NCBI GenBank assembly: GCA_035221665.1
Contig: CM069153.1
Span: forward strand, 40,920,001-40,984,000
Direction: 5' to 3'
Origin: Okamejei kenojei
Lineage: Eukaryota
Length of the DNA stretch: 64,000 bases
Both the position numbers and the translations under genes were made by a program. Positions 5,740 through 57,190 of the stretch are shown piece after piece. Position 1 is the first letter of the stretch; each line of letters begins with the position of its first letter. A model generated the notes under the pieces. It was given only the letters and a program-made list of their open reading frames with translations, was not told the origin of the DNA and did no database searches.

Positions 5740-7140
5740 AAGAACATACAAGAACAGCACTGGAACAGGCTCTTTGGTCTTTGATGTCTGTGCTGACCAT
5801 GATGCCAGATTAAACTAACCCCCATCTATCTACATGATCCATATTTGTCCATTCGCTGCATGTGCATGTATCCACCCATATCTGTAAATAATATGTATCC
5901 TGTGACAACCACCTTCACTATCCGCAACTCCATCGGTTTTTGCATCATCTGCAAAGTTACTAATCAGCCCATCTAAATTTTCTTCCAAGTCATTTATATA
6001 TCAGAAACAAGAGGTTCCAAGCACTGATTCCGGCGAAACATCACTGGTTACAGACCACCAGTTAGAATAATACTCCCATTCTTTCCCCTTCTACCTCCTA
6101 GGGCCAAGACAATTTTGAATCAAGCCTACCAGATCACTGGATCCCATGCATCTTAATCTTCTGCATCAACCTATCATGAGGGACTTTGTCAAATGCCTCA
6201 CTAAAATCCATGTAAACAACATTCACTGCACTATCCTCATCAATCATCTTCACTTCCTCAAAAATGTTATCAAGTTTGTAAAGCCCCTGTCCCACTTTGG
6301 TGATTTTTTTTTTTGGCGACTACAGGAGACTCGGCTGTCGCCACATGGTCACGGAGTGATGTCTGTAGGGTCGTGAGTAGTCTCCTCAAGTCGCCTAAAG
6401 AGTCATAACATTTTTTTAATTGCCGCTGGATTTTGAAATATTCAAAACTTTTCGGCGACTGTGGGCTTGATGTAGCTTTTCTTCTCCTGTCATATGTGCT
6501 GTCATAGGTTGTTGCCAGGATGACACGGGTTGTCGCCAGGTGACGTTGGTTGTCGCCGGGTGCTGACTTCAGTGAATTCCATTGGCGACTACCTACGTCA
6601 ACCGGCGACGGATACCGGTGACTGAATTGTCTTCAGTTGTCGCCGACAGTGCCGTTGCTTGTCGCTGGTGGACGTAGGTTGACTTAGGTTGTCGTAGGTT
6701 GTCGCCTGTGTGGTCGTAGGTGGATGTCCTAATGGGTCCCCGATTGTCGCCTGTGTGGTCGTAGGAGGACGTCCTAATGGGTCGCCGGTTGTCAGTAGCT
6801 TGCCGTAGCTTGGCATCGACTAGGTGGTAGGTTGTCGTGGGGGGGGGGGGGGCAGTTGCCGCTTTTTCGGCCACTTGCTACAAATGTGACAGTCGCTGAA
6901 AAAATCGCCTAAGTGGGACAGGCCCCTAAGATATGATCTGCCACATACTCACTCAGATAATAAATCCATACGTGTAAATCCTATCCCTAACAATCCTCTC
7001 CGATAGTTTCCTTACCACTGACACGAGGCACACCGGCCTATGAATTCCTGGATTATCCTATGTCCTCCTTACACAGAGGAACAATGTAGGCTACTGTAGT
7101 CCTCTGGGACATGGCCTGGAGCGAGAGACAATACAAAGAT
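5740..7140 (-). mobile_element. Old CR1, host of the 6282-6926 MITE
   Basis: Minus-strand remnants of FADDAK and VYMDFSEAFDKVPH. Confidence 0.7.
6282..6926. mobile_element. PIF/Harbinger-type MITE
   Basis: TAA|AGCCCCTGTCCCACTT...AAGTGGGACAGGCCCC|TAA. Exact 3-bp TAA TSD inside an old CR1; internal GTTGTCGCC repeats. Confidence 0.9.
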
Positions 7141-7328: not shown

Positions 7329-8958
7329 CCATATATAACCATATAACAATTACAGCACAGAAACAGGCCCTCTCGGCCCTTCCAGTCCATGCCGACCATT
7401 TGTTTTCCCCTAGTCCCATCTACCTGCACTCAGACCATACCCCTCCATTCCCTTCACGTCCATATACCTATCCACTTTACTCTTAAATGTTAAAATCGAT
7501 CCTGCCTCCACCACTTCTGCTGGAAGCTGATTCCACACAGCCACCACCCTCTGAGTAAAGAAGTTCCCCCTCACGTTACCCCAAAACTTCTGTCCCTTAA
7601 TTCTCATATCATGCCCTCTTGTTTGAATCTTCCCTACCCTCAATGGGAAAAGCTTATCCACGTCAACTCTGTCTATCCCTTTCAACATTTTAAAGACCTC
7701 AATCAAGTCCCCCCTTAACCTTCTGCGCTCCAAAGAATAAAGACCTAACTTGTTCAACCTTTCTCTGTAACATAGTTGCTGGAACCCTGGCAACATTCTA
7801 GTAAATCTCCTCAGTACTCTCTCTATTTTGTTGACATCCTTCCTATAACTAGGCGACCAAAATTGTACACCATACTCCAGAATTGGTCTTACCAATGCCT
7901 TGTACAATTTTAACATTACTTCCCTACTCCTATATTCAATGCTCTGATTTATAAAGGCCAGCACACCAAAGGCTTTCTTTACCACCCTATCTACATGCGA
8001 TTCCACCTTCAGGGAACTATGCACAGTTATTCCTAGATCCCTCTGTTCCACAGCATTCCTCAATTCCCTACCATTTACCATGTACGTCCTATTTTGATTT
8101 GTCCTGCCAAGATGTAGCACTTCACACTTATCAGCATTAAACTCCATCTGCCATCTTTCAGCCCACTTTTCCAAATGGCCCAAATCTCTCTGTAGACTTT
8201 GAAAATCTACTTCATTATCCACAACACCACCTATCTTAGTATCATCTGCATACTTACTTATCCAATTTTCCACCCCATTATCCAGATCATTGATGTACAT
8301 GACAAACAACAGTGGACCCAACACAGATCCCTGAGGCACCCCACTGGTCACCGGCTTCCAACCTGACAAACAGCCATCCACCATTACTCTCTGACATCTC
8401 CCATTCAGCCACTGTTGAATCCATCTTGCTACTCCGCCATTAACACCCAAAGATTGAACCTTCTTAACCAACCTTCCATGGGGAACCTTGTCAAAGGCCT
8501 TACTGAAATCCATATAGACAACATCCACTGCTTTACCCTCATCAATTTCCCTAGTTACCGCTTCAAAAAATTCAAGAAGGTTTGTCAAACATGACCTTCC
8601 AGGCACAAATCCATGTTGACTGTTCCTGATCAGACCCTGTTTATCCAGATGCTTATATATATATTATCTCTAAGCATCCTTTCCATTAATTTGCCCACCA
8701 CTGACGTCAAACTAATAGGTCTATAATTGCTAGGTTTATTCTTTGAACCCTTTTTAAACAATGGAACAACATGCGCAGTACGCCAATCCTCCGGCACTAT
8801 TCCCGTTTCTAATGACATTTGAAATATTTCTGTCATAGCTCCTGCTATTTCTACACTAACTTCCCTCAATGTCCTAGGGAATATCCTGTCAGGACCTGGA
8901 GACTTATCCACTTTTATATTTTTCAAAAGTGTCAGTACTTCCTCCTCTTTGAATCTCA
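7329..8958 (-). mobile_element. Young CR1 LINE, 5'-truncated, with RT domain
   Basis: ORF 7410-8606 with GVPQGSVLGP and KYADD; upstream part ORF 8630-8958 shifted by a 2-nt AT slippage near 8660; (TGGTTATA)n tail. Confidence 0.97.
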
Positions 8959-9170: not shown

Positions 9171-10363
9171 CAGTGCCCTCTATAATGTTTGGGACAAAGA
9201 CCCATCATTTATTTATTTGCCTCTCTACTTCACAATTTGAGATTTGTAATAGAAAAAAATCACATGTGGTTAAACCGCACATTGTCAGATTTCTATTAAA
9301 GGGTGTTTTTATACATTTTGGTTCCACCATGTAGAAATCACAGCTGTGTTTATTCAATACTTCCCCCCCCCCCCCCCCCCCCCCCCCCCAAAAAAAAATC
9401 GTGGGGCACCATAATGTTTGGGACACATGGCTGCTCTGCTGTGGTTAATTGCCTCCTTAATGCAGGTATAAGAGAGCTCTCAGCATCTAGTTTTTTCTCC
9501 AGTCTTTCTATCACCTTTGGAAACTTTTATTGCTGTTTATCAACATGAGGACAAAAGTTGTGCCAATGAAATGTCAAAGTAGCCATTATGAGACTGAGAA
9601 ACAAGAATAAAATTGTTAGAAACATCAGCCAAACCTTAGGCTTACCAAAATCAACTGTTTGGAACATCATTAAGAAGAAAGAGAGCACTGGTGAGCTTAC
9701 TAATCGGAAAGGGACTGGCAGGCCAAGGAAGACCTCCACAGCTGATGACAGAAGAATTCTCTCTATAATAAAGAAAAATCCCCAAACACCTGTCCGACAG
9801 GTCAGAAACACTCTTCAGGAGTCAGGTGTGGATTTGTCAATGACCACTGTCCGCAGAAGACTTAATGAACAGAAATACAGAGGTTACATTGCAAGATGTA
9901 AACCACTGGTGAGCTGTTAAAATAGGATGGCCAGGTTACAGTTTGCCAAGAAGTACTTAAAAGAGTAACCACAGTTCTGGAAAAAGGTCTTGTGGACAGG
10001 CCTGCAATACAGGCCTGGCAGAGCATCACCAGAGAGGACACCCAGCAACTGATAATGTCCATGAATCATAGACTTCAAGCAGTCATTGCATGCTAAGGAT
10101 ATGCAACAAAATACTAAACATGACTACTTTCATTTACATGACATTGCTGTGTCCCAAACATTACGGTGCCCTGAAATGGGGAACCTATAAACACTGCTGT
10201 AATTTCTACATGGTGAAACCAAAATGTATAAAAACGGCCTTTGTTAAAATCTGACAATGCACTTTAACCACATGTGATTTTCTTTCTATTACAAATCTCA
10301 AATTGTGGAGTACAGAGGCAAATAAATGATGGGCCTTTGTCCCAAACATTATGGAGGGCACTG
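9171..10363 (+). mobile_element. Tc1-family transposon, internally deleted
   Basis: TA|CAGTGCCCTC...GAGGGCACTG|TA with long (over 200 bp) IR-DR-type TIRs. ORF 9588-9920 encodes the paired-like HTH and GRPRKT. The sequence jumps from WKKVLWT to the C-terminal QAWQSIT...GYATKY*. Confidence 0.95.
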
Positions 10364-13499: not shown

Positions 13500-15574
13500 T
13501 TTTAAGTTAAAATGGTCAGAATTATATTGGGGCATATCTTCTTCCAAATAGGAAGAAGTGATCCTTGGTGATCATATTGGCTGGCATGTTAAGAGAATCA
13601 AATTTTGTTGCTCTGTGAATGTTCTATTCAATACGGGAAATACCCGGGTAAACTGATATGCACTAATGTGTTTCACTTTGGGATATATAATGTCTTGGCA
13701 AAATGTTGAATGTGGTGTAATTTAAGGCATTTCTATTCAATCAGTGCAACCTAAAGTATTCAACGTATTTAGATGCTAGTTTAACTAGTTTCATTCCATG
13801 ACACACAGTGCTTGATGCCTGCCGCATTCCCTTGTCACAAAGGCTTTGTGCATGGTGCAAAATGTTGTATAAGAAGGAATTGCAAATGCTGGTTTAAACC
13901 AAAGATTGACACAAAAAGCTGGAGTAACTCTCCAGAGATGCTGCCTGTCTGATGGAAGATTTAGTACTGAATGTTTTGTGGATTTGTCAACAATTTACCA
14001 TTGGAAATAATTGGATTTGGTCACAGTTTATGCATAAATAATTTTGTTATTTCTCCACCCAATTCATATGATGACATTTATTAAATTCACTCAAGAACAG
14101 ATTAGATATGTTATTACTAAATGAAAGCTCACTGACATGAGAAAGTAAAAGGAAATTGCTATGTATCTTAGCTGAAATTGCCAAAGCCCATCCAGGCAAA
14201 ATAGCATGAGCAGCTTGACACTTCCCAAAGCAAAATAAGTAGTTGCTGGTTTAATTGCATTTTGGAATTTGCTTCTAGTTCCAAAATACTCCTCTAAGTT
14301 TAATAATGCTATACAAATGCAATTACATTCTGCGTACGGAATTCTGTATTCTTATGTGCCACATAATATGTTCAATGACCTTTAATAGTATTACGAATAT
14401 CATGCCAAACGTCGCCTACATTCTTGAGATCAGTATTAAACTAAAATCTTCACTAGACGAGCCGCCCACATGCTGTAGGGATGTGAACACCTCGGATTAT
14501 AGGTGTGCAGCAACCAGTGACTCGCCACTTGACCCCATGACGTCAATCTGCCGTGTACAAGGCACAAGTCAGGAACATGGTGGAATACTCTCCACTTGTC
14601 TGCAGGGTACCAATCCCAATGACACAACATCCAGGATAAAGCAGCCTCCTTAATGAGGAAGACATCTGACCCCCTACCCAAAACATGCCCACTTGCAAGC
14701 GATAACTTAGATGAAAATATAATGAATTTAACACTGGATTAGAAAAATATGTGCTATAAAAGTACATGGAATAAATAATTGATGAGTTGTATCCCATTCC
14801 TCAGGGTGGAACTGTGCCTGAAGCAAATTAAAATCGTACAATAGCTTTATCAGAGGGGTGGCTCAATTTGCTAGATTGAGATGGTCATTGATTAGATAGC
14901 ATCATGACATCTGAAAGTACAAATCTTTTCATCCTCTGTGTACTCCTCTGTTGGTATCAAGCATCCTCACCTGGTGAATACAAGTCAAGCCAGCAGCGAT
15001 TTATTTTGAGGTGGCTTGAAGAAATATCGTTTTCCCTATTTTTGGAGACTTGCCTTTTCTGCAGCTGTTACAGGAACATGATTGTGCATGTTTGTTTCTA
15101 TATCTTCTCTAGAGCCATTCTGGTTTCTCAATAAGCTGACTTTTTCAATAATAGTTGGAACGTTTAAAAGTGTGTGGCTGGTTCTACTGGCATGATAAGA
15201 ATAGAAAAATCCAAAGTTAATTTTTGAAATGTGTAGCTGTTAATTACAATAGCCTGAAAACTGACAAATGTTTTGATTGTTTTGTTTATTTGCTCAGATT
15301 TTTTGTTTGTTTTCTTGTATTCATATATCATACTCCACCTACTAAACTCTTGTGTAAATCATTATTTTAATGTTCAGAATCAAATTTGATTCAGAATATC
15401 ACTTCATTTGGTACAGCATTCAATATGTTTAAACAATTGGTATGCACGGTAGTTGGGAAGCAGTTCACATGTAGATGATGTTGGAGAGACTAAACTCTTA
15501 TTTTTAATGCATTTTTTGTCGTTTGTACAGTTTAAAATCTGATTTTGCTTTACTAGAGAAGCACAACAAGCATT

Positions 15575-24265: not shown

Positions 24266-26904
24266 ACCTATAAATTCTAAACTCCGATGTATACATGCCT
24301 GGCCTGTCCAACGTTTCCTTTAAGATAACCTGTTCTGGACATCAATTTAATAAACCCACAAAACTACCCTCTATTAATTAACATCCTCTCATATTGATCC
24401 AGATGTTTTCTCACTAATGCACAATATAATCACCTACTTTTGCATTCATTTCTCCTTAAGCAATAAAAAATTATATTGATAGCTTTCCCTTGGTAAACCT
24501 GCAGTACTGGTTGGCTTGAACATCTGTCGTTGGCAGCATCGTTGGCAAATAGACAAACACAGAGAGAAAAAAAAACTTGCATTTCTAGAGGCATTTTTTG
24601 AGGTACTCATGAAAGTTCATGAAGTAGAATGTAATCTCTTTACACGGATGTAAGATTTGCTGTCACACAGGAAACAGCAAGGTCTTTCTCGTGGTTTGCC
24701 GGTTGTATTGAATGCTGTGCAGTGAGGATTTGGACTGTTCCCTCAATTTTATGGAAATGGATTAAAGATCTGAAAGTATGGTTGCTAAATTTGCTGATGA
24801 AACAAAGATACTAGAAAAGCAATTGTGAAAAGTTCTGATGATGGTTGCCAATGGGTGCAAATAACTGACTGGAAAAAGTTCTTGCAGATGGACTATAATC
24901 TTAGGAAAATGTAAAATGTCCAATTTTGGCAAGAAAAGAAAAACAGCGTTTTATTTACATGATGAGAAATTATACCGCTCTGGTCTTTAGGCAGAATTTA
25001 ATAAAAGGAACTCAATTAATATGAAGGCAAATTATTAATGTGACCTCAGTTGGCAGCACAGCAGTGGTCCAAAGGATAGGTACATAATTAGTAGGACTTA
25101 CAAGAACTGTCATCTGTCAGTGATTGATGTGTTTTTTTCATCCAGTCATCCCACGTTGCCAATAACACAAAGATAGGCATTTTCAATTGAAACATTAAAT
25201 TGAATTCTGTTTTAAATATTTAAATTAGGCGTATTAGCATTTATTATTAACCTAAAAAGGGTGGAATAGAGTACTTTCTAACAGCTCAGGAGAGTTCAGG
25301 GAAACTTTGAGGTGAATGTATGCAGTTCATTAAAATGTCTGGGACAGTTACAGAAAATCATCTGCAAGGTAATGGAATAACTTCCTTTATATCTGGAGCT
25401 TCTGGTACAATGGTTTAAAAGTTCTGATGGAACCCTATGCAGAAGCTTGGTTCGGATATATGTTATGGTCTCAGGAAGGATATATTGTCTTTCAGAGAAG
25501 TGCCTTAGAACAACTGGGGATGGACAATAAATGATAGCATTACCAGGGATATCCACATTATGTGAATGAATCCACAAACTCATTTATGGAAGTGGAACAT
25601 AAATGGATTATTTTTCAAATGCCTTAATCACTAGCATTGCCAACAATTATTTAATTATCCCTGAGATCAGAAGGCATTTAAAGTCAACACCTTATGTAGA
25701 TCTGGAATCATATTTGCCAGACCAGGTAAGTATAGCAGATTTCCTTCCCAGAGAAAATTTAGTAAACCGGATGGGATTTAACAATAATCTGGTAGTTTCA
25801 TGGATATCATTTTTAACACTAGAATTCCAGATTTAGCTACTTGAGTTTAAATTGATCATGTTGAATAGTGGAATAGGCTTGGTGGAGGCAGGAATAGAGC
25901 TCTTTCCTGTGTTTCTTTATTTCTATGAAAATAGATAATTACTTTTAGTTGTTGTTCCCAGGGTGCACATGAATAGCCCTACTCTGAGATTCATTCCTTG
26001 GAAATTGAAAATAAAATCTATCTAAGAAATTCCGCTTAAGTTATATTATCAATAATTACAATGGGGTATTTTATGTTATTGTGAAGACTGGGAATTTGAT
26101 TAAATATCTCGAAGTATACAGGGCCTTAGTATTTTATGGAAATGCAAGAATAAACCCCAAATGTCCCTGTCAGCGTTGTTGATGAAACAAGTGATACCCG
26201 AGGTTTACTCATGCAGGTGGAGGGGTGAAGTGGTCTTTATTGTGTTGCAGTCTACTGACTCGGGGTAGTCCTGAAGTAAACCCTCGGCCTTGTCAAACCA
26301 CTGCGATATTACCCTTATCTTTGGCGTCATGTTTTAGTGTAAGCCTGTAAACAGAACTGCAGCAATATTTATTGCTAATTTTCTATTTGGACAAATTATT
26401 ACATAAATAAAATTCAGACATTAAATACCTATTTCTCCAATAGCAATTCATCTAGCCAAGTGGAGGGGATTTTATCTGTGTTCTTATTGATTGGGACACA
26501 TTTTGGAATGCCAGAATAGTTGGTTTATAACCTGCTTTTGGCTGGTACATTGAGATTATGACTAATTGTGATTCCCTTGTATGTTGAGATTGGGGACTAG
26601 CCAGTGGGAATGCCACTGATTTGTCAAGAGTAGCTGGTTCGATTTTTGGAAACGGTCTTTGCCTGGCACTTTGGAGCACAAATATGGATTTGCTACAATT
26701 TCTTTAGATTTATGAATGGGAATAAAAATTACACAATCATCCGTTAAAATCCCCATTTCTGACCAAGATTGTTGGGGTTCTGATTATTACGATTTAATTA
26801 ATTGACTTCCACTAACCACACCTATCTTTGTGTGATATATAACTGAAATCATTGCAATGTTTGCTTCTTGCTATTTATCAACTTTGGTTTTATCAAGGAT
26901 CCTT

Positions 26905-30407: not shown

Positions 30408-31413
30408 AAGCGAGTTTGGTATTCCGACTGCACATGCTCAGGTCATAGGTCACTAGCTATAAAACAGTCTCGGCAATGGTGGTGCTGTATTGTGTGCAGG
30501 CTTGCGTTTTGTCTTCCTTTCCCCTCCCCATTGTCCCTTTGCAGCTGCTCTGCTTGGCAGCAGTCCTCCCACCACAACCACCACCCCCCCCCCGCAATCC
30601 TGCTGAAGATGGGCAGCCGCCGCCCTTGCTCGATGACGGGCGACTTGTAGCTGCTGCTGGAGTAGACCTGATCCGAGAGAGAGTCTGCGGATGGGCTCCT
30701 GCCGGCCACGGGCAGGCTGGGAGCCCACTGGAGCTGCTGGTGCTGTTGGTGGTGCTGGTGGTAGCAACAACCTTCTCCCCCTCCCTTGCTCGGCCCCAAG
30801 CCCAGAGTCTGGGCCAGCTCCAACTCCAGGTCGGGGCTGAAGCCGACCGCAGCGCAGCACAATCGAGCACCGGGCTGGAGGAGGCCGAGCCCAGGCTGGC
30901 GCTCTGGCGCAGGCGAGGCCGGGGCCCTCGCTCCTCCTCGGGGTTGTGGATGAAGTGGCAGCGGGTACTGTAGGGGCAGAAGCCAGTGGTGTGTAAGGTA
31001 CGGCTTGTACTTGGGGTGGCGGCTGAGGGAGCGCAGTTCAGACAGGCCATGGGCGAACTGGCACTTGTTGCTGTGGAGGCCTATCGGGAGCGGGTTTCTC
31101 TGGGGTTGGAGCGGGGTTGGGCTGGAGTTGGCTGTGGGTTCTGTGGGCCTGGGGCCGCTGGTGTTGTGGTCGGTTGGCCCGACGGGAGAGGCGGAGGTGA
31201 GCCTGGGTTGGTGCGTCTCCGCACTGGGCCTGGGGGCCAGGGCCAGTCCAGTGGCAGTTCTTCCCCCCCGACTCCCCCACTGAAAAAAGCCAAAAACTCG
31301 GACCCAAACTATACTCACTGAATCTACAGCACTTCGTTCGATTTTTATTTATAGTGTTCGACTTTTGATAAATACCATGATTCCTTGCTTTCGTCGGAAT
31401 AACAAACTCACTT
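30408..31413. mobile_element. Non-autonomous TIR DNA transposon (AT TSD; ISL2EU/PIF-Harbinger-like) enclosing a host gene fragment
   Basis: 21-bp TIRs AAGCGAGTTTGGTATTCCGAC / GTCGGAATAACAAACTCACTT (19/21). AT at 30406-07 and 31414-15. Removing the element restores a CR1 endonuclease-like reading gat-gat-aat-tct-att. Confidence 0.8.
30593..31075 (-). pseudogene. ZFP36/tristetraprolin-family (CCCH tandem zinc finger) gene fragment, frameshifted
   Basis: [21 protein letters not shown], then about 11 nt deleted, [25 protein letters not shown]...RLRQSAS, then a second shift, then [31 protein letters not shown] (CNOT1-binding motif). Paralog not determined. Confidence 0.9.
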
Positions 31414-41913: not shown

Positions 41914-42486
41914 GAATATCTTCCAACACAACAGGACATTCTACTGGCACGAAGGCCCACTAAAGGAATACATGAATACGACTTTGAAATAAAAAATGTG
42001 CCCTTCAAGATGGTGGACGTGGGTGGACAAAGATCAGAACGGAGGCGTTGGTTTGAATGTTTTGATGGCGTGACTTCCATTCTCTTCCTGGTGTCGTCAA
42101 GTGAATTTGACCAAGTGCTGATGGAAGACCGGCAGACGAATCGCCTGAGTGAATCCTTGAACATCTTCGAGACGATAGTCAACAACAGAGTCTTTAGCAA
42201 TGTCTCCATTATTCTTTTCCTTAATAAGACGGACTTGCTGGAAGAAAAGGTTAAAACTATTAGCATCAGAGACTACTTTCCACAATATGAGGGAAATCCC
42301 CATGAGCTCTCCGATGTCCAACAGTTCCTTGTGCAGTGCTTTCGTGACAAACGTCGAGACCAGCAACACAAACCACTATACCATCACTTCACCACCGCCA
42401 TTAATACCGAAAATATTCGTCTGGTTTTCCGTGACGTCAAAGACACTATTCTCCATGACAACCTTAAGCAGCTGATGCTTCAGTGA
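41914..42486 (+). CDS. GNA13: G protein alpha-13, last coding exon
   Basis: ttttAG|GAA acceptor. [43 protein letters not shown]...NKTD...[31 protein letters not shown]. Has DVGGQ and NKxD motifs and the G13-specific C terminus LKQLMLQ. Confidence 0.98.
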
Positions 42487-50945: not shown

Positions 50946-51669
50946 TGAAATACACACTTATTATGTGCATCGCAACCCGCAGATCAACCCTGCCTGCTGA
51001 TTTACATCCACCCTTCACACAAAACAAACTGCAGACTTGGGCAATGATTCGACCTACTTAACCTAACTCGAAGATGATTCAAACACGAATGAATACCTAC
51101 TACGCAAACCTCAGCTAATGTGTAGGAAGGATCTGCCGATGCTGGTTTAAACTGAAGATAGACACAAAGAGGTGGAGTAATTCAGCAGGTCAAGCAGCAT
51201 CTCTGGAGAAAAGGAATGGTTCAGGTCAAGACCTTCAGACTAAGAGTCGGGGGATAGGGAAACTAGAGATAGACGGTGGTGTAGATAGAACATAGGAGAT
51301 ATGTGCGGAAAAAGTAACGTGGAGGAAGGAACTGTAGGTGCTGGTTGAAACTGGACTTTAGGAGGGACACCCGTGTGGATGTGCGGTTTACCAGGGAGTA
51401 CAAGAAGGGACAGAGCCGGCTGTACTTTTCGAAAAGGCTCCGCTCCTTCAACGTCTGCAGTAAGATGCGGCAGATGTTCTACCAATCGGTGGTGGCCAGT
51501 GCCATCTTCTTTACTGCCGTGTGCTGGGGCAGCTTGGGCGAAGGCTGCAGACGCAAATAAGATCAACAAACTCATCAGGAAGGCTGGCTCCTTCCTGGGT
51601 GCGGGGTTGGATTCATGGGAGGTGGTCTTGGAGGGAAAGATGCTAAAACTGCGGAGCATCCTGGACGAT

Positions 51670-52486
51670 AGGGAAGTTGCACAGCAGTCAAGGTCGTGAC
51701 CCGTGCTGTTGCCAACGCCAACTGGAGTACACGCGGTGAACTGCAGGTAAGCATTTACTATTGCTGCCAGCACAGCGGGCCCTCCTTCTGTCCCAGCATC
51801 TGGACTCCACAATGACTGGTTCCACACTAGCGGACCCCGGGCCGTCTATCCCCGCAGCCGAAGGGGAGGAGGCACGGGTGTCGGTGCAGCGCCTGGGTGG
51901 GCGGAGGGACCAGACAATCCCCAACTCTGCTGCAGCTGATGGGGACGTTGCCGGGTGGTCCGGGAGGAGGTAGAGGGTGGTCGGTCGGGGTGCCGGTGCA
52001 ACGCTGTCAGTGACTGGGTGGGCGGAGGGACCAGACTGTCCCCAACTCAGCTGACTGGGACGTTGCCAGGTTTGTGTCCCTGTGTGTCCACTGCCCGGAG
52101 CCGCGACCTCACTCCACCCGGCCCCATGTGTGAGCGCTGCTGACCCACAGCCCGTGACATTGGGGCCCACAGGGGGAGACGGGGCCAAACAGTGCTGACC
52201 CCGGGGGGGAGGGGGAGGAGAATGTGGGGATGGGCTCCTTCGGCCGCTTACACCTTGGTGCTTGGGTTCAGAGCAAAGATACTAGAGCATTTGGTTCAGA
52301 ACGCACAGTCGCCCTCCACAATTATTTACAGCGCAGAAATTGACCATTTTGGCGGTTTTTAACAAGTAAGAAAGTACGCATTTCGTGTGTTAACAGTGTA
52401 TGCCGAGGCTGCCATGTCTTGCAGACGGATTGAGCTGCTCCGTGCGTCACACCGTTTGACCCGATGCCCTTGCGTGCAACCTCCCT
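51670..52486. mobile_element. GC-rich non-autonomous TIR element inserted in a Rex/Babar LINE
   Basis: TIRs AGGGAAGTTGCAC / GTGCAACCTCCCT (12/13), preceded by AT. Interrupts LINE LRSILD|..PLHDTLVNL (compare the uninterrupted copy at 10741-10795). The right TSD is lost with a small deletion. Confidence 0.75.
52274..52293. mobile_element. 20-bp hAT-like micro-element
   Basis: CAAAGATACTAGAGCATTTG flanked by GTTCAGAG / GTTCAGAA. Confidence 0.65.
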
Positions 52487-52610
52487 CAACCCCCTCCATG
52501 ACACACTGGTCAACCTGTGGAGCACCTTCAGCAATGGACCTTCACCAAGATCCTTCTTCCCTGTGGCTATCAAAATTTACAACTCATCCCCCTTGTGTCG
52601 TGGTGAAGAG

Positions 52611-52642
52611 CAAAGATACTGGAGGAACCTCTAGTATCTTTG
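52611..52642. mobile_element. 32-bp hAT-like micro-element (palindromic)
   Basis: CAAAGATACTGGAG-GAAC-CTCTAGTATCTTTG flanked by GTGAAGAG / GTGTAGAG. Confidence 0.8.
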
Positions 52643-53079
52643 GTGTAGAGTGAGACTGACCCACTCCCACCCCCCGATCTTTGCACATCCCCCAAGCCTT
52701 TCCACTCGTCACTTTCATTTCATGAATTTTGTGTTTTTTTTACTGTTGGCAGATCAATTTCCCACCTGGGATGAATAAAGTTCTATCGTATCCGTCAACA
52801 GAAGATGGACACAAAATGCTGGAGTAACTCAGCGAGTCGGGCAGCATCTCTGGAGAGAAGGAATGGATGATGTTTCGGGTCGAAAGAGTACCGATGATCA
52901 AGGAAACCGTCCATTGTTAGCTGTGGGTTGGGTGAAATCGAGTTACACAGACAATGACAAGTTTGGTTTGGGGAGAGGACAAACCACACACAGCTCCCAG
53001 TGCGCACATCCGCACTCCTCCATCTTGTCGGCTGCTGAAAGTGGGGGCGCCCGTCGCCTGATCACCACCCCCCCCCCCC

Positions 53080-53345
53080 CCCCGGCTCGTGTCCGTAGCG
53101 CGCCCCGCCTTCCCGGCTCGTGCCCATCACCAGCACTCCCCCTCCCCCCCACCTCGTGCCCATCACTAGCACTCTCACCCCCGTGCTCGTGTCCATCACC
53201 AGCACTCTCACCCCCGTGCTCGTGTCCATCACCTGAGCTCCACCCACCGGGGCTCTTGCCCGCGCACGTCACCTGCGCTTCCTTTACCCCCCCCCCCCCC
53301 CCTCCCCCGGCTCGTGTCCGCGACTCCGTGTCCGTCACCTGCGCT
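53080..53345. repeat. About 33-bp imperfect VNTR in the AMZ2 promoter
   Basis: CTCGTG at 53086, 53117, 53153, 53186, 53219 and 53311; unit CCCCCGTGCTCGTGTCCATCACCAGCACTCTCA. Confidence 0.85.
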
Positions 53346-53423
53346 TTCCCCCCACGGCTCGCGCCCGCCCGCGCGTTAACGGTTACTGGGGCGCGCGACG
53401 CCTGCGCTTCGTCGCCGTCGTCA

Positions 53424-53450
53424 ATGGAGCGAGCTGGCGGCGGCAACCTG
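53424..53450 (+). CDS. AMZ2: Possible upstream in-frame ATG in AMZ2 exon 1 (MERAGGGNL)
   Basis: ATG at 53424, 27 nt to a CTG|GTTGGT donor; in frame with the acceptor at 56485/56486 and ATG 56501. Confidence 0.4.
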
Positions 53451-53494
53451 GTTGGTGGCTCGGGCCTTGCGTGTGGAGCCGCTGTACCTAGTAG

Positions 53495-53531
53495 CAAAGA
53501 TACTATAATATACTCCGCTCTATAATCTTTG
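53495..53531. mobile_element. 37-bp hAT-like micro-element
   Basis: CAAAGATACTATA...CTATAATCTTTG flanked by CCTAGTAG / CCTAGGAG. Confidence 0.75.
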
Positions 53532-53948
53532 CCTAGGAGTGTGCACCCGCTCCTGATATGTGTGCCCGCAGCTCTGAACATGGTCGGCCTGCTTGAAAAA
53601 CGGCCCCCAGCAAAGGTGACACTGCATGGAAGGATTCTGGTGTAATGAGGCAACTGATGAAACTGTAATGATAGAATTTCCTGTTGAAGGGAAGCAATAT
53701 CGAAAGTCTTGGGTGTTCTTAGGTAGACCGAAGGAACTGCAGTTGCTGGTTTAAGACTAGGTTTCTCAGACAAATTTTATATCACGTAAATAATGGTAAT
53801 CATTTACTTTATGTTTTAAATTTGTCGCCTGAAAGTAGTGCATATGAAAAATTCTGACAGATCGATCAAGTTTTTTTCCTTTTGGTTTGGTTTCGTGCCT
53901 CTACAGGTATTACGACATCAGAACATGCTAGAAATTACCCACTTTATA

Positions 53949-55479
53949 TAGCAATGATACAAAATTTTGAGATTTAAAAAATCAAGTCTGCAATTTATCC
54001 CACCAGATAAAGCATAAAAAAAGTTTAATTTGACACCTAATTCACTTTCATATCTTCAGTTTTCAAAAAGTTATGGCCATTTTCATACTCGGAAATTTGC
54101 ATCTTGTTCCCTATTGCTTTTCTATTGACTTAACAAAAGCTGTGATAGAGGACAGTCAAAAGCCCATAACTTTCTTAAAAATCAAGAAAACTGAATGAAA
54201 ATTTCAGTTATTACAGATTGAAGCATTCTGAAACATCTTACTTGAATGACCTGAAATTAAAGCATATCATTAGCTAATTACCTAATAGTAGTTAATTACA
54301 AAACTGACCGTTGTGACGGAAATAGTAATAAACACCCAGACTGCCTTGAAAATTCAAAAATGTGATATTCTCAAGATCAGAACTTTAATATTATTGTATT
54401 ATCTGCTGTAAGTCCGTAATAGATAGGTAAATAAATTACAATTTCTAGCAATAGACCAAGTCTTTATGGAGAAGATCAGTTGCTAGCTGGTACATTGGCA
54501 TATCATAATCAGTAGCCTCATCATACTCCTCATAATGTAACCAATATGCACTGTACACCTTGTTTTTCCTCAACTTTTCAATTTTGGCGTTATAAACTAC
54601 AAGTTTTTGCTCTTCAAACCACGCATGACATGCCTTTCTGCCCACTACTTTCCCATTAAGAATGTCCTGTACATTCAATTTCTTAAGAAAAGGGCTTTTT
54701 TTTAAATAGCCTATCCGAATAACAAACAAACAATCCCATTCATACAAGAATTTACAATATAACATGATTTTTAAATCTCACTGTCGTTAATTTATATGCC
54801 AGATGGAAGGAATTGTTTAATTCCCATAAGTTAATCTAGAAACATCCACTCAATATAATTAAAATTATCATTTTTTTGCACCATATATGGGACTAAAACT
54901 GATATTTGGTATAAAAATATTGACTGGATAGACAATAACACAAAATATAGACGATTTAGATTCTCTTATGATATGATTGTACAAAAAAAGCATTTAAATC
55001 ATCTTGCGAGTTGGTTTTTCTGGAACGCGATCGATTGGGATGTTGCATTTGCGGAGAATTTGAACTCCATATCGGCAGGAAAAACACTGTTGGTTCGTAT
55101 GGGGCCCAAATCACATTTTTGCAACGTAAAATTAGATTAAAGCCATCCCAAGAAGCAAGATTATATGTAAAATAAACAACTTGCCTTTTGTTTTGTCCTG
55201 TTCATGCGATCCGTCTCGTAGGTGTTGAGGGCGTTAGAAGTCGCTTTTTATTTTTAATCTAATTATTAAATTGTTCTGTGATTTACATATTTTTAAAATC
55301 GGGAACGGAAGTGGGATCGATTTTTCTTCAGCAGCTAGTAGCCCGAGGAAATGTGCCTCGGACAGGCGGTAGAAAACTGGATTTTAATCCCGCCCCCCAC
55401 CTTCCAAGGCACCAAAGTCGCGCACACGGCCAGTGGCAGAACTGCAGCGCCGCTGAAGCTAAATTTTGTAACATCACTA
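53949..55479 (-). mobile_element. hAT-like DNA transposon remnant with 7-bp TSD in AMZ2 intron 1
   Basis: TIRs TAGCAATGATACAAAATTT / AAATTTTGTAACATCACTA (16/19); flanks CTTTATA / CTTTGTA. Residual minus-strand ORF 54445-54765 looks like a protein C terminus. Confidence 0.75.
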
Positions 55480-56500
55480 CTTTGTATCTGAGGTAGTGCT
55501 GCCTGTAGATCCCTGATGGTGGGAAGGTCAATACCCACGATGGACTGGGCAAAGTCCACAAAAAAATGCAATTACCGGGTATTAAAGAAATATTGCAAAT
55601 AGTCATTTAACTTTAAACCTTTGGGTGTCACAGGTGAGTTCACACAGTGCCATTTTAGGAAGTGACATTTGCTGACAAATAAACACAAAAATTGTGGGTA
55701 ACACCATTGTGCTTCTTCAGAGTAATGCCATGGAGTCTTTGGTATTCACTTGAGTTCTATAGTGGAGTGTTAGCCGAGGTATTTATGCTCAAGTCTCGAA
55801 AGTCAGATCTTTAATTATGAAATTAGAGTGCTAAAAATTGAGCAACGGCTGAAAACATCTCCAACTGCTCTTCCTCAACCGAAAATCTAGAGTTGTCACA
55901 TGATTGCACAAAAGTCATGTGACAGTGCACCTTCAGACAGATTGAGCTTCACTAAGGCATTGTGATAGTATTGCCGCCACCATGTTATCCCCACTTCCCC
56001 ATCATATGCACTTGATGGTGATACTGTGAACAACGTCAGTAAAAGATTGCTTGAAATTATCGTATGCACATGATCATCGTCAGTGTTCTAACAGACAATT
56101 AGTCCTGTCATTGGGCAATTGAGAGGTCTCATCTTTGACCGTGTATACTGGCGTTCCAATGACTTCCACCATTTCTAGTAGGTGATATCTGTAGATCTAC
56201 CTATCTACTTCTTAACCTCTACTTCCTCAGTTTTTGATGGAAATAAGAGGCCTGGTGATCAAAATGGAACAAAGCTATTTTTGAGAGTGACAATGCAGGA
56301 GAGTTGAATTATTAAACAGACATGATGGCTTGATTTGGTGAAGCGAGAATGCATGGACACAGGTATAGGTACATTTGCCAGTTAAGTGATGTGAAGAGTG
56401 ATGTAGTGGAGGATTGAATAGGCAGAGTGATGTTCACATCAACATTTAAATGAAATTAACACTGAATTTTAACTTTGTTTTGTAGTCATCTGTTTTACCA

Positions 56501-56783
56501 ATGGAGACAATCAAACACAGCGAAGAGATGCTGAGGACAGCCCTAATTTCTAATCATAAGGACTTTATTGACATGTATCAGAAGTACACTCCAAATGTGA
56601 AAAGGTTCCTCGAGGAAGGATTTAAGGCAAACAGTATTCTTTTCAAACCCATTGAGTTACATTCAAAGTCTGATTGGATCCTGAGCAATCCTGAACAAAA
56701 GCAAGATTTCTACACATATTACACCAACTCACACAGAAAGACACCAGTTCCTGGGAAAAATATTATTTGCATTCAGATCATTG
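56501..56783 (+). CDS. AMZ2: Archaemetzincin-2, first conserved coding exon (exon begins 56486)
   Basis: METIKHSEEMLRTALIS...LHSKSDWILSNPEQKQDF...RKTPVPGKNIICIQIIG resembles human AMZ2 MQIIRHSEQTLKTALIS...LHSPSDWITSHPE. Acceptor tgtAG at 56485, donor G|GTATGA, phase 1. Confidence 0.95.
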
Positions 56784-57190
56784 GTATGATTTTATAAACT
56801 TATTTCACTCAGATTAAATGACTGGATTACAAAATTATTCTGATTGTTAATTGACGATTCAAGAATAATTTATGCACTTCTTTCTGTCCATAATTGAAGC
56901 CGTTCATGATGCACAGCTGCCTTGATTTCCATCTAACACTGTCAGTGAATTCTATAAAAGCTTTATTCTTTCCTATATTTCATTTCCTGACAATCTAACT
57001 TTTTCTTCTTACCTCCTGGCATCCAGTTGACCCAACGTTCCTCAATTACTATCAGCTCCAGTATTCCTTTATTAAAAATCTTGGAATGTTTTATTCTCCG
57101 GTTCACTGTTCAACATCAGTGACATTCCAGTCCATAATCTTGAAACATCATTATCCAAACTAAAAAATGTTTCTTGTTCTATTTTATAAA

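Follow-up and report, generated by a model that had tools for sequence, protein, structure and literature searches.

Short terminal-repeat inserts near AMZ2 in Okamejei kenojei: likely excision footprints of a P-superfamily transposon

Introduction

Eight-bp target site duplications (TSDs) and CA..TG ends are carried by transposons of the hAT superfamily, in whose Ac subfamily nTnnnnAn is the target motif, and all three features recur in the inserts described here. hAT excision makes hairpins on the flanking DNA and cuts through them (PMC5499845), whereas the parent transposase of the present inserts is P-type. The P element of Drosophila melanogaster is alike in that its donor-site products have an 8-bp TSD on both sides of two stubs of the terminal inverted repeat (TIR), and the 17-nt staggered cut, a hallmark of P transposition, has been shown for the fly enzyme (PMC2895639). 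The likeness extends to a GT....AC target core, a lean towards promoter-like DNA, and the combination of THAP, RNase H and GTP-binding domains (PMC7776569, PMC2577343). The fly scars are laboratory products, whereas those described here are natural, fixed and present in thousands in a vertebrate genome; the arm limit is 17 nt in the fly but 18 or 20 nt (possibly 19) here, as judged from the scars; and the TIR sequence is a different one, and many of the scars were multiplied as passengers within other repeats. Zebrafish Pdre2 (zfTHAP9) is likewise a vertebrate P-like element with 8-bp TSDs and internally deleted relatives, but it has 13-bp TIRs and distant subterminal repeats, whereas the TIRs here are at least 23 nt long; in the passages considered here, no cut position is given for Pdre2 (PMC10983969) or for vertebrate P/THAP9 enzymes.

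The window analyzed here is a stretch of 64,000 nucleotides of the Okamejei kenojei genome (assembly GCA_035221665.1, contig CM069153.1, positions 40,920,001 to 40,984,000, forward strand). A preliminary description had reported three short inserts clustered at the AMZ2 promoter and had read them as hAT-like minimal transposons or as abortive gap-repair scars. We consider it likely, with a probability of roughly 0.85, that they are footprints left on excision by a cut-and-paste transposon of the P superfamily (THAP9-like), of which intact copies with the same ends persist in the genome.

Results

The three inserts and their flanking 8-mers were found in the sequence as first described, all on the + strand. 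Insert 1 (20 bp, 52274..52293) lies between TSD copies at 52266-52273 and 52294-52301 (GTTCAGAG/GTTCAGAA) and consists of a 15-nt TIR arm, an A and a 4-nt arm. Insert 2 (32 bp, 52611..52642; TSD at 52603-52610 and 52643-52650, GTGAAGAG/GTGTAGAG) differs by two substitutions from a recurrent 32-bp blunt join of 18+14 nt, while insert 3 (37 bp, 53495..53531; TSD at 53487-53494 and 53532-53539, CCTAGTAG/CCTAGGAG) is composed of a 12-13-nt arm, AT-rich filler and, from the long end type, an arm of 19 nt. The flanking repeats carry one mismatch each at all three inserts, and two of the three sites fit nTnnnnAn, both as originally stated. When the window was shuffled in 1-kb blocks, one of 300 shuffles yielded one such structure and 0/300 yielded more than one. 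That none had been noticed elsewhere in the 64 kb also held: the window has no further short CAAAG..TTTG insert with a matching 8-mer. A fourth exact CAAAGATACT at 24803 has neither a partner end nor a TSD, and an 83-bp CAAAG..TTTG pair at 14182, which has no TIR arm past CAAAG, looks like chance.

The three inserts have separate histories. Insert 1 is a passenger inside a carrier repeat, a multi-copy non-autonomous TIR element (51668..52486, + strand) with TAGGG...CCCTA ends that are adjoined by TA in several copies; the footprint is present in 24 of the 24 best carrier paralogs, partly deleted in one, and the count of empty copies among them is 0. The carrier splits a repeat at 51318..52790 (+ strand), which we take to be the decayed 3′ part of a LINE, and which has a weak PF09004 match just below the cut-off at 51318-51557. 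Insert 2 is contained in the tail of this repeat (52487-52790). Among 24 LINE paralogs, 22 are without the insert (21 clearly, one in degenerate sequence) and the empty ones contain a single copy of the 8-mer; one is unaligned across the site, and the last (L115) carries a different insert, of 20 bp, between the same duplicated 8-mer that flanks the 32-bp insert in the window. The empty paralogs and the L115 insert together show that the 8-mer was duplicated as a true TSD and that two hits on the same LINE site ended differently; insert 2 is a local insertion into the LINE 3′ end. Insert 3 is located in unique DNA. Among the differences listed, it is unchanged in a second sample of organism A, and in organisms B and D it is spanned by contigs at full length, with the gap letters there explained without loss; organism C has deletions at both of its ends, in one contig with a depth of 2.9. 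Insert 3 is old and fixed, and common to related species. Because insert 1 is a passenger, the window holds two independent events 853 bp apart rather than three.

AMZ2-type exons lie on the + strand, with a Peptidase_M54 match on an exon just beyond the window. The first coding exon of AMZ2 is probably the one at 56501..56790 (+ strand, end approximate), upstream of the exon with that match; we assign it to AMZ2 by its N-terminus. Since these exons run on the + strand and the upstream G-alpha exon on the same strand ends at 42483, the CpG-rich stretch at ~53.0-53.6 kb (53000..53600, approximate bounds, strand unset) is the likely AMZ2 promoter, or possibly its first exon. The placement at an AMZ2 promoter is therefore plausible as a likely location, but only insert 3 stands within CpG-island DNA: its flanks have a GC content of 0.59 and a CpG observed/expected ratio of 0.93, while those of inserts 1 and 2 (0.56 and 0.60) are within repeats upstream of the island. 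No function of the scars for AMZ2 itself is indicated. Other features of the window include a degenerate 33-36-bp tandem repeat at 53072-53332, on the 5′ edge of the CpG-rich stretch; a TIR element at 53900-55509, which lies in what is likely the first AMZ2 intron and has 23-nt arms that are 78% complementary; a CCCH zinc finger frame (PF00642) at 30460-31080 on the minus strand, in GC-rich DNA between the G-alpha exons; a reverse transcriptase frame at 7413-8663 (minus strand); and a Tc1-type transposase fragment at 9570-9917 (+ strand).

The window inserts belong to a genome-wide family of thousands. Across the whole genome, the 14-mer end occurs 2,902 times versus 110 times for its reversed control, and paired 7-nt ends within 46 bp are found at 6,381 places versus 1,016 for the control. 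The length distribution is concentrated at short forms: a 14-nt arm plus opposite end gives 4,896 rows with lengths of 21-51 bp, compared with 298 rows with lengths of 52-82 bp. Rows with full ends, 23-25 nt long, number 3,012. A set of 187 loci, with L115 added, yielded 119 elements that have a TSD (one mismatch at most); these fall into 60 site clusters, and 118 of the 119 are 12-40 bp long, although most were picked by short patterns. Many scars, insert 1 among them, were copied as passengers when other repeats multiplied. Non-autonomous relatives with full ends and TSDs, from 335 bp to 5.6 kb, are common. Several loci of the family have unusual forms. In L031:2127-8640 (G000:C1 near 104.06 Mb) there is a noisy tandem array of several kb, where the assembly may be poor, with a 24-bp unit equal to a 22-bp scar plus two bases and 22 exact units, apparently a footprint-born satellite. 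A short array at L363:1500-1940 (G000:C2 near 6.921 Mb) has units of TSD plus scar, with varying scar lengths, between GTCCAGAG repeats, and L411 (G000:C5:21277205-21277271) has two TIR arms around ~35 bp that resemble a common genomic repeat, a possible DNA capture at a break; no TSD pair was found there.

The TSDs of 59 sites gave a symmetrised profile of G at position 1 (51%), T at 2 (78%), A at 7 (78%) and C at 8 (51%). The consensus is (G/C)T....A(C/G), which holds the GT....AC core of the P superfamily. The Drosophila target core GTCCGGAC fits nTnnnnAn as well, so this motif, present at 34/59 sites compared with 4/59 for nnnTAnnn, is no guide to whether an element is hAT or P. The 14-bp fly motif, ATRGTCCGGACWAT (PMC2577343), also has an outer AT..AT, which is absent from the profile of the 59 sites. 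The flanks are island-like at 21/59 sites (14/46 among singletons) versus 7.9% of 1,890 overlapping background windows, with binomial p values of 2e-9 for all 59 and 8e-6 for the singletons, but this enrichment is confounded, as GC-rich repeats were counted as islands and exact patterns favor unmutated copies. The proposal of three targeted promoter hits is thus overstated for the window, given that insert 1 is a passenger, while a CpG-rich lean across the family is supported subject to the same confounding. A preference for promoters and local hopping are already known for P elements (PMC7776569). As a family trait, the local hopping that had been suggested is weak here: among 52 singleton sites, 4 have a neighboring scar no more than 1 kb away, with carrier repeats involved in those pairs, and 200 kb of background contained 0 scars.

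Longer parental elements with the TIRs of the window inserts do exist. Searched with the P-type GTP-binding domain, the genome yielded 20 matches, around which 19 regions of 10 kb and 20 extensions were taken; 10 of the 19 regions have inward-facing ends. Two elements with intact ends are complete, L095 (10,235 bp, perfect 8-bp TSD, CTCTGAAC twice) and L097 (6,452 bp, perfect 8-bp TSD, CTTTCAAC twice). L095 has RNaseH_N, GBD and RNaseH_C domains above the cut-off and a THAP match below it (E 4e-4), L097 has HTH, RNaseH_N and GBD, and the broken frames of the two match PF21787, PF21788, PF21789 and PF12017 above the cut-off. A transposase whose RNase H domain is split by a GTP-binding insertion, with an HTH and an N-terminal THAP, thus lies inside the same TIRs, as in the P superfamily, and the 8-bp TSD of that superfamily is found at 3/3 window inserts and in both parents. 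Cleavage in the P superfamily is GTP-dependent, and at the sequence level the GTP-binding domain is present here. Both parents are broken, and the window scars may predate or postdate them. As a full counterpart of insert 1, L095 was rejected; the two have the 8-mer in common, but the DNA around L095 shows no relation to the carrier. Some P elements (L095:2480-2600, L099, L102, L105, L112, L113) also harbor, within their ends, scars of the family to which they belong, and these were copied along with them.

The arms retained in the scars end at GAGC, 18 or 20 nt from the end according to the end type. Because the patterns used demand long arms, the two counts of 100 matches that follow test only the sequence after the arm, which this selection does not bias; many rows are passengers. 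Among 100 matches listed for the short type (84 places) with an 18-nt arm, inspection by eye showed that 7 have the next A of the TIR and one continues AAG, and that 31 of the 84 places are a 34-bp GC-annealed join. Among 100 matches listed for the long type, which include a 38-bp passenger family, 82 reach base 20 by eye, three continue CAA and one CAAG. An arm that extends well past the limit occurs in one of the 100 matches listed for each end type. A set of 60 loci was chosen by a single 14-mer, except for L228, which was picked by hand; in this set, short-type arms end at 18 (8), at 17 (2) or at the full 23 (3), and none at 19-22.

The junctions are of the kinds that PMC2895639 tabulates for P tails of 17 nt (Table 1), namely microhomology, blunt and templated-insertion joins. 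The 34-bp (18+18-2), 38-bp (20+20-2) and 37-bp (20+19-2) forms are joins via the terminal GC, the 20-, 22- and 28-bp forms follow palindromes within the TIR, and some scars contain filler copied from the arms. Blunt joins of 18+18, 18+14, 20+15 and 20+9, all with TSDs, show that the 18 and 20 limits hold without help from microhomology. Three end types exist, in which GAGC finishes at base 18, 19 or 20, and several elements of 370-413 bp pair one 20 end with one 19 end. Mixed scars of 36 bp are ambiguous (18+20-2, or blunt 18+18), because no parent with 18 and 20 ends was confirmed; the candidates L399 and L400 gave no TSD pair. From the 400-bp parents with 20/19 ends and the 37-bp scars equal to 20+19-2, we tentatively suggest, at somewhat less than even odds, that the nick may be set by sequence at GAGC^AAGAT rather than counted from the end. 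The tail would then be 18, 19 or 20 nt long depending on the end type, and could differ between the two ends of a single element; alternatively, the enzyme of each subfamily may have an offset of its own. The 37-bp scars would fit such unequal tails, but trimming by one base would give the same length.

Discussion

The preliminary description was right that the inserts are remnants of transposon ends with true TSDs, but the ends belong to P/THAP9-type elements and not to the hAT superfamily. A derivation of the elements or scars from Ac-type hAT transposons has hardly any probability left: the genome has many hAT transposases, and the 8-bp TSD, the CA..TG ends and the nTnnnnAn fit agree with this origin, the TSD and the motif being undiagnostic because P has them too, whereas the ends of the window inserts flank a P transposase and 0 of 30 hAT loci (PF05699; 30 of 150 scored matches from 1,801 candidates) carry these ends within 1.5 kb on each side. 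Excision by a hAT enzyme should moreover not leave long TIR stubs, because its hairpins form on the flanking DNA. That the inserts are TIR-only micro-elements transposing as units of 20-40 bp, one of the two options originally offered, is very unlikely. The 34-bp palindrome does recur at unrelated sites with different TSDs (11/60 site clusters), but arms and joins differ by site as end-joining products do, and the recurrent forms match those predicted from the palindromic microhomologies of the TIR. The inner TIR (AAGAT..CCACT) common to all long elements is missing from the short inserts, which range over 12-40 bp with varied joins and lack the uniformity and complete TIRs of a unit that moves as such; true MITEs that have full ends are a separate set, 335-1,456 bp long. 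P transposition requires internal binding sites (PMC7776569), and 18-nt staggered cuts would leave such units no duplex.

The other original option, a repair scar, came closer. If a few bases of each end were copied from the sister chromatid in abortive gap repair and then joined, extreme internal deletions would result, and in wild-type flies most P repair products are of this kind, with incomplete synthesis and end joining (PMC2895639). A minority with one long arm, all with TSDs (L412, 46 bp; L414, 41 bp; L362, 74 bp), is in keeping with it, but synthesis tracts should form a continuum, whereas in the samples taken here the arms stop at one base, and the second arm of L412 still stops at 18. 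Abortive gap repair covers the minority alone, one of the 100 matches listed per end type, and as a general explanation we regard it as improbable, if less so than the two preceding ones. Deletion, or gap-repair synthesis over a very short tract, could likewise produce short arms.

Excision footprints of a P-type element remain the preferred reading. Excision itself is unobserved, as no site was seen with both a full element and a scar. In the proposed mechanism, the transposase would insert with an 8-bp stagger at GTnnnnAC-like sites, and later excision with a long stagger, as the arm limits suggest, would leave 3′ TIR tails of 18-20 nt on the donor. Germline end joining of a polymerase-theta-like kind would then fuse the tails through microhomology of 1-6 nt, bluntly, or with templated filler, and the resulting scars would not be expected to move by themselves. 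A literature search, with subscription papers and repeat databases outside its scope, found no report of natural P footprints in vertebrate genomes; repeat databases may already contain the family.

For annotation, a caution follows from these data: such palindromes would be scars, often passengers, and not tiny hAT MITEs. The finding matters for its testable cut positions more than for the cluster at AMZ2, since the scars predict exact nick positions, at 18 and 20 nt, on named substrates, and would record how the vertebrate germline joins long 3′ tails. If the nick is indeed set by sequence, this family would offer natural read-outs, in their thousands, of how a vertebrate P enzyme cleaves and of theta-type end joining in the germline.
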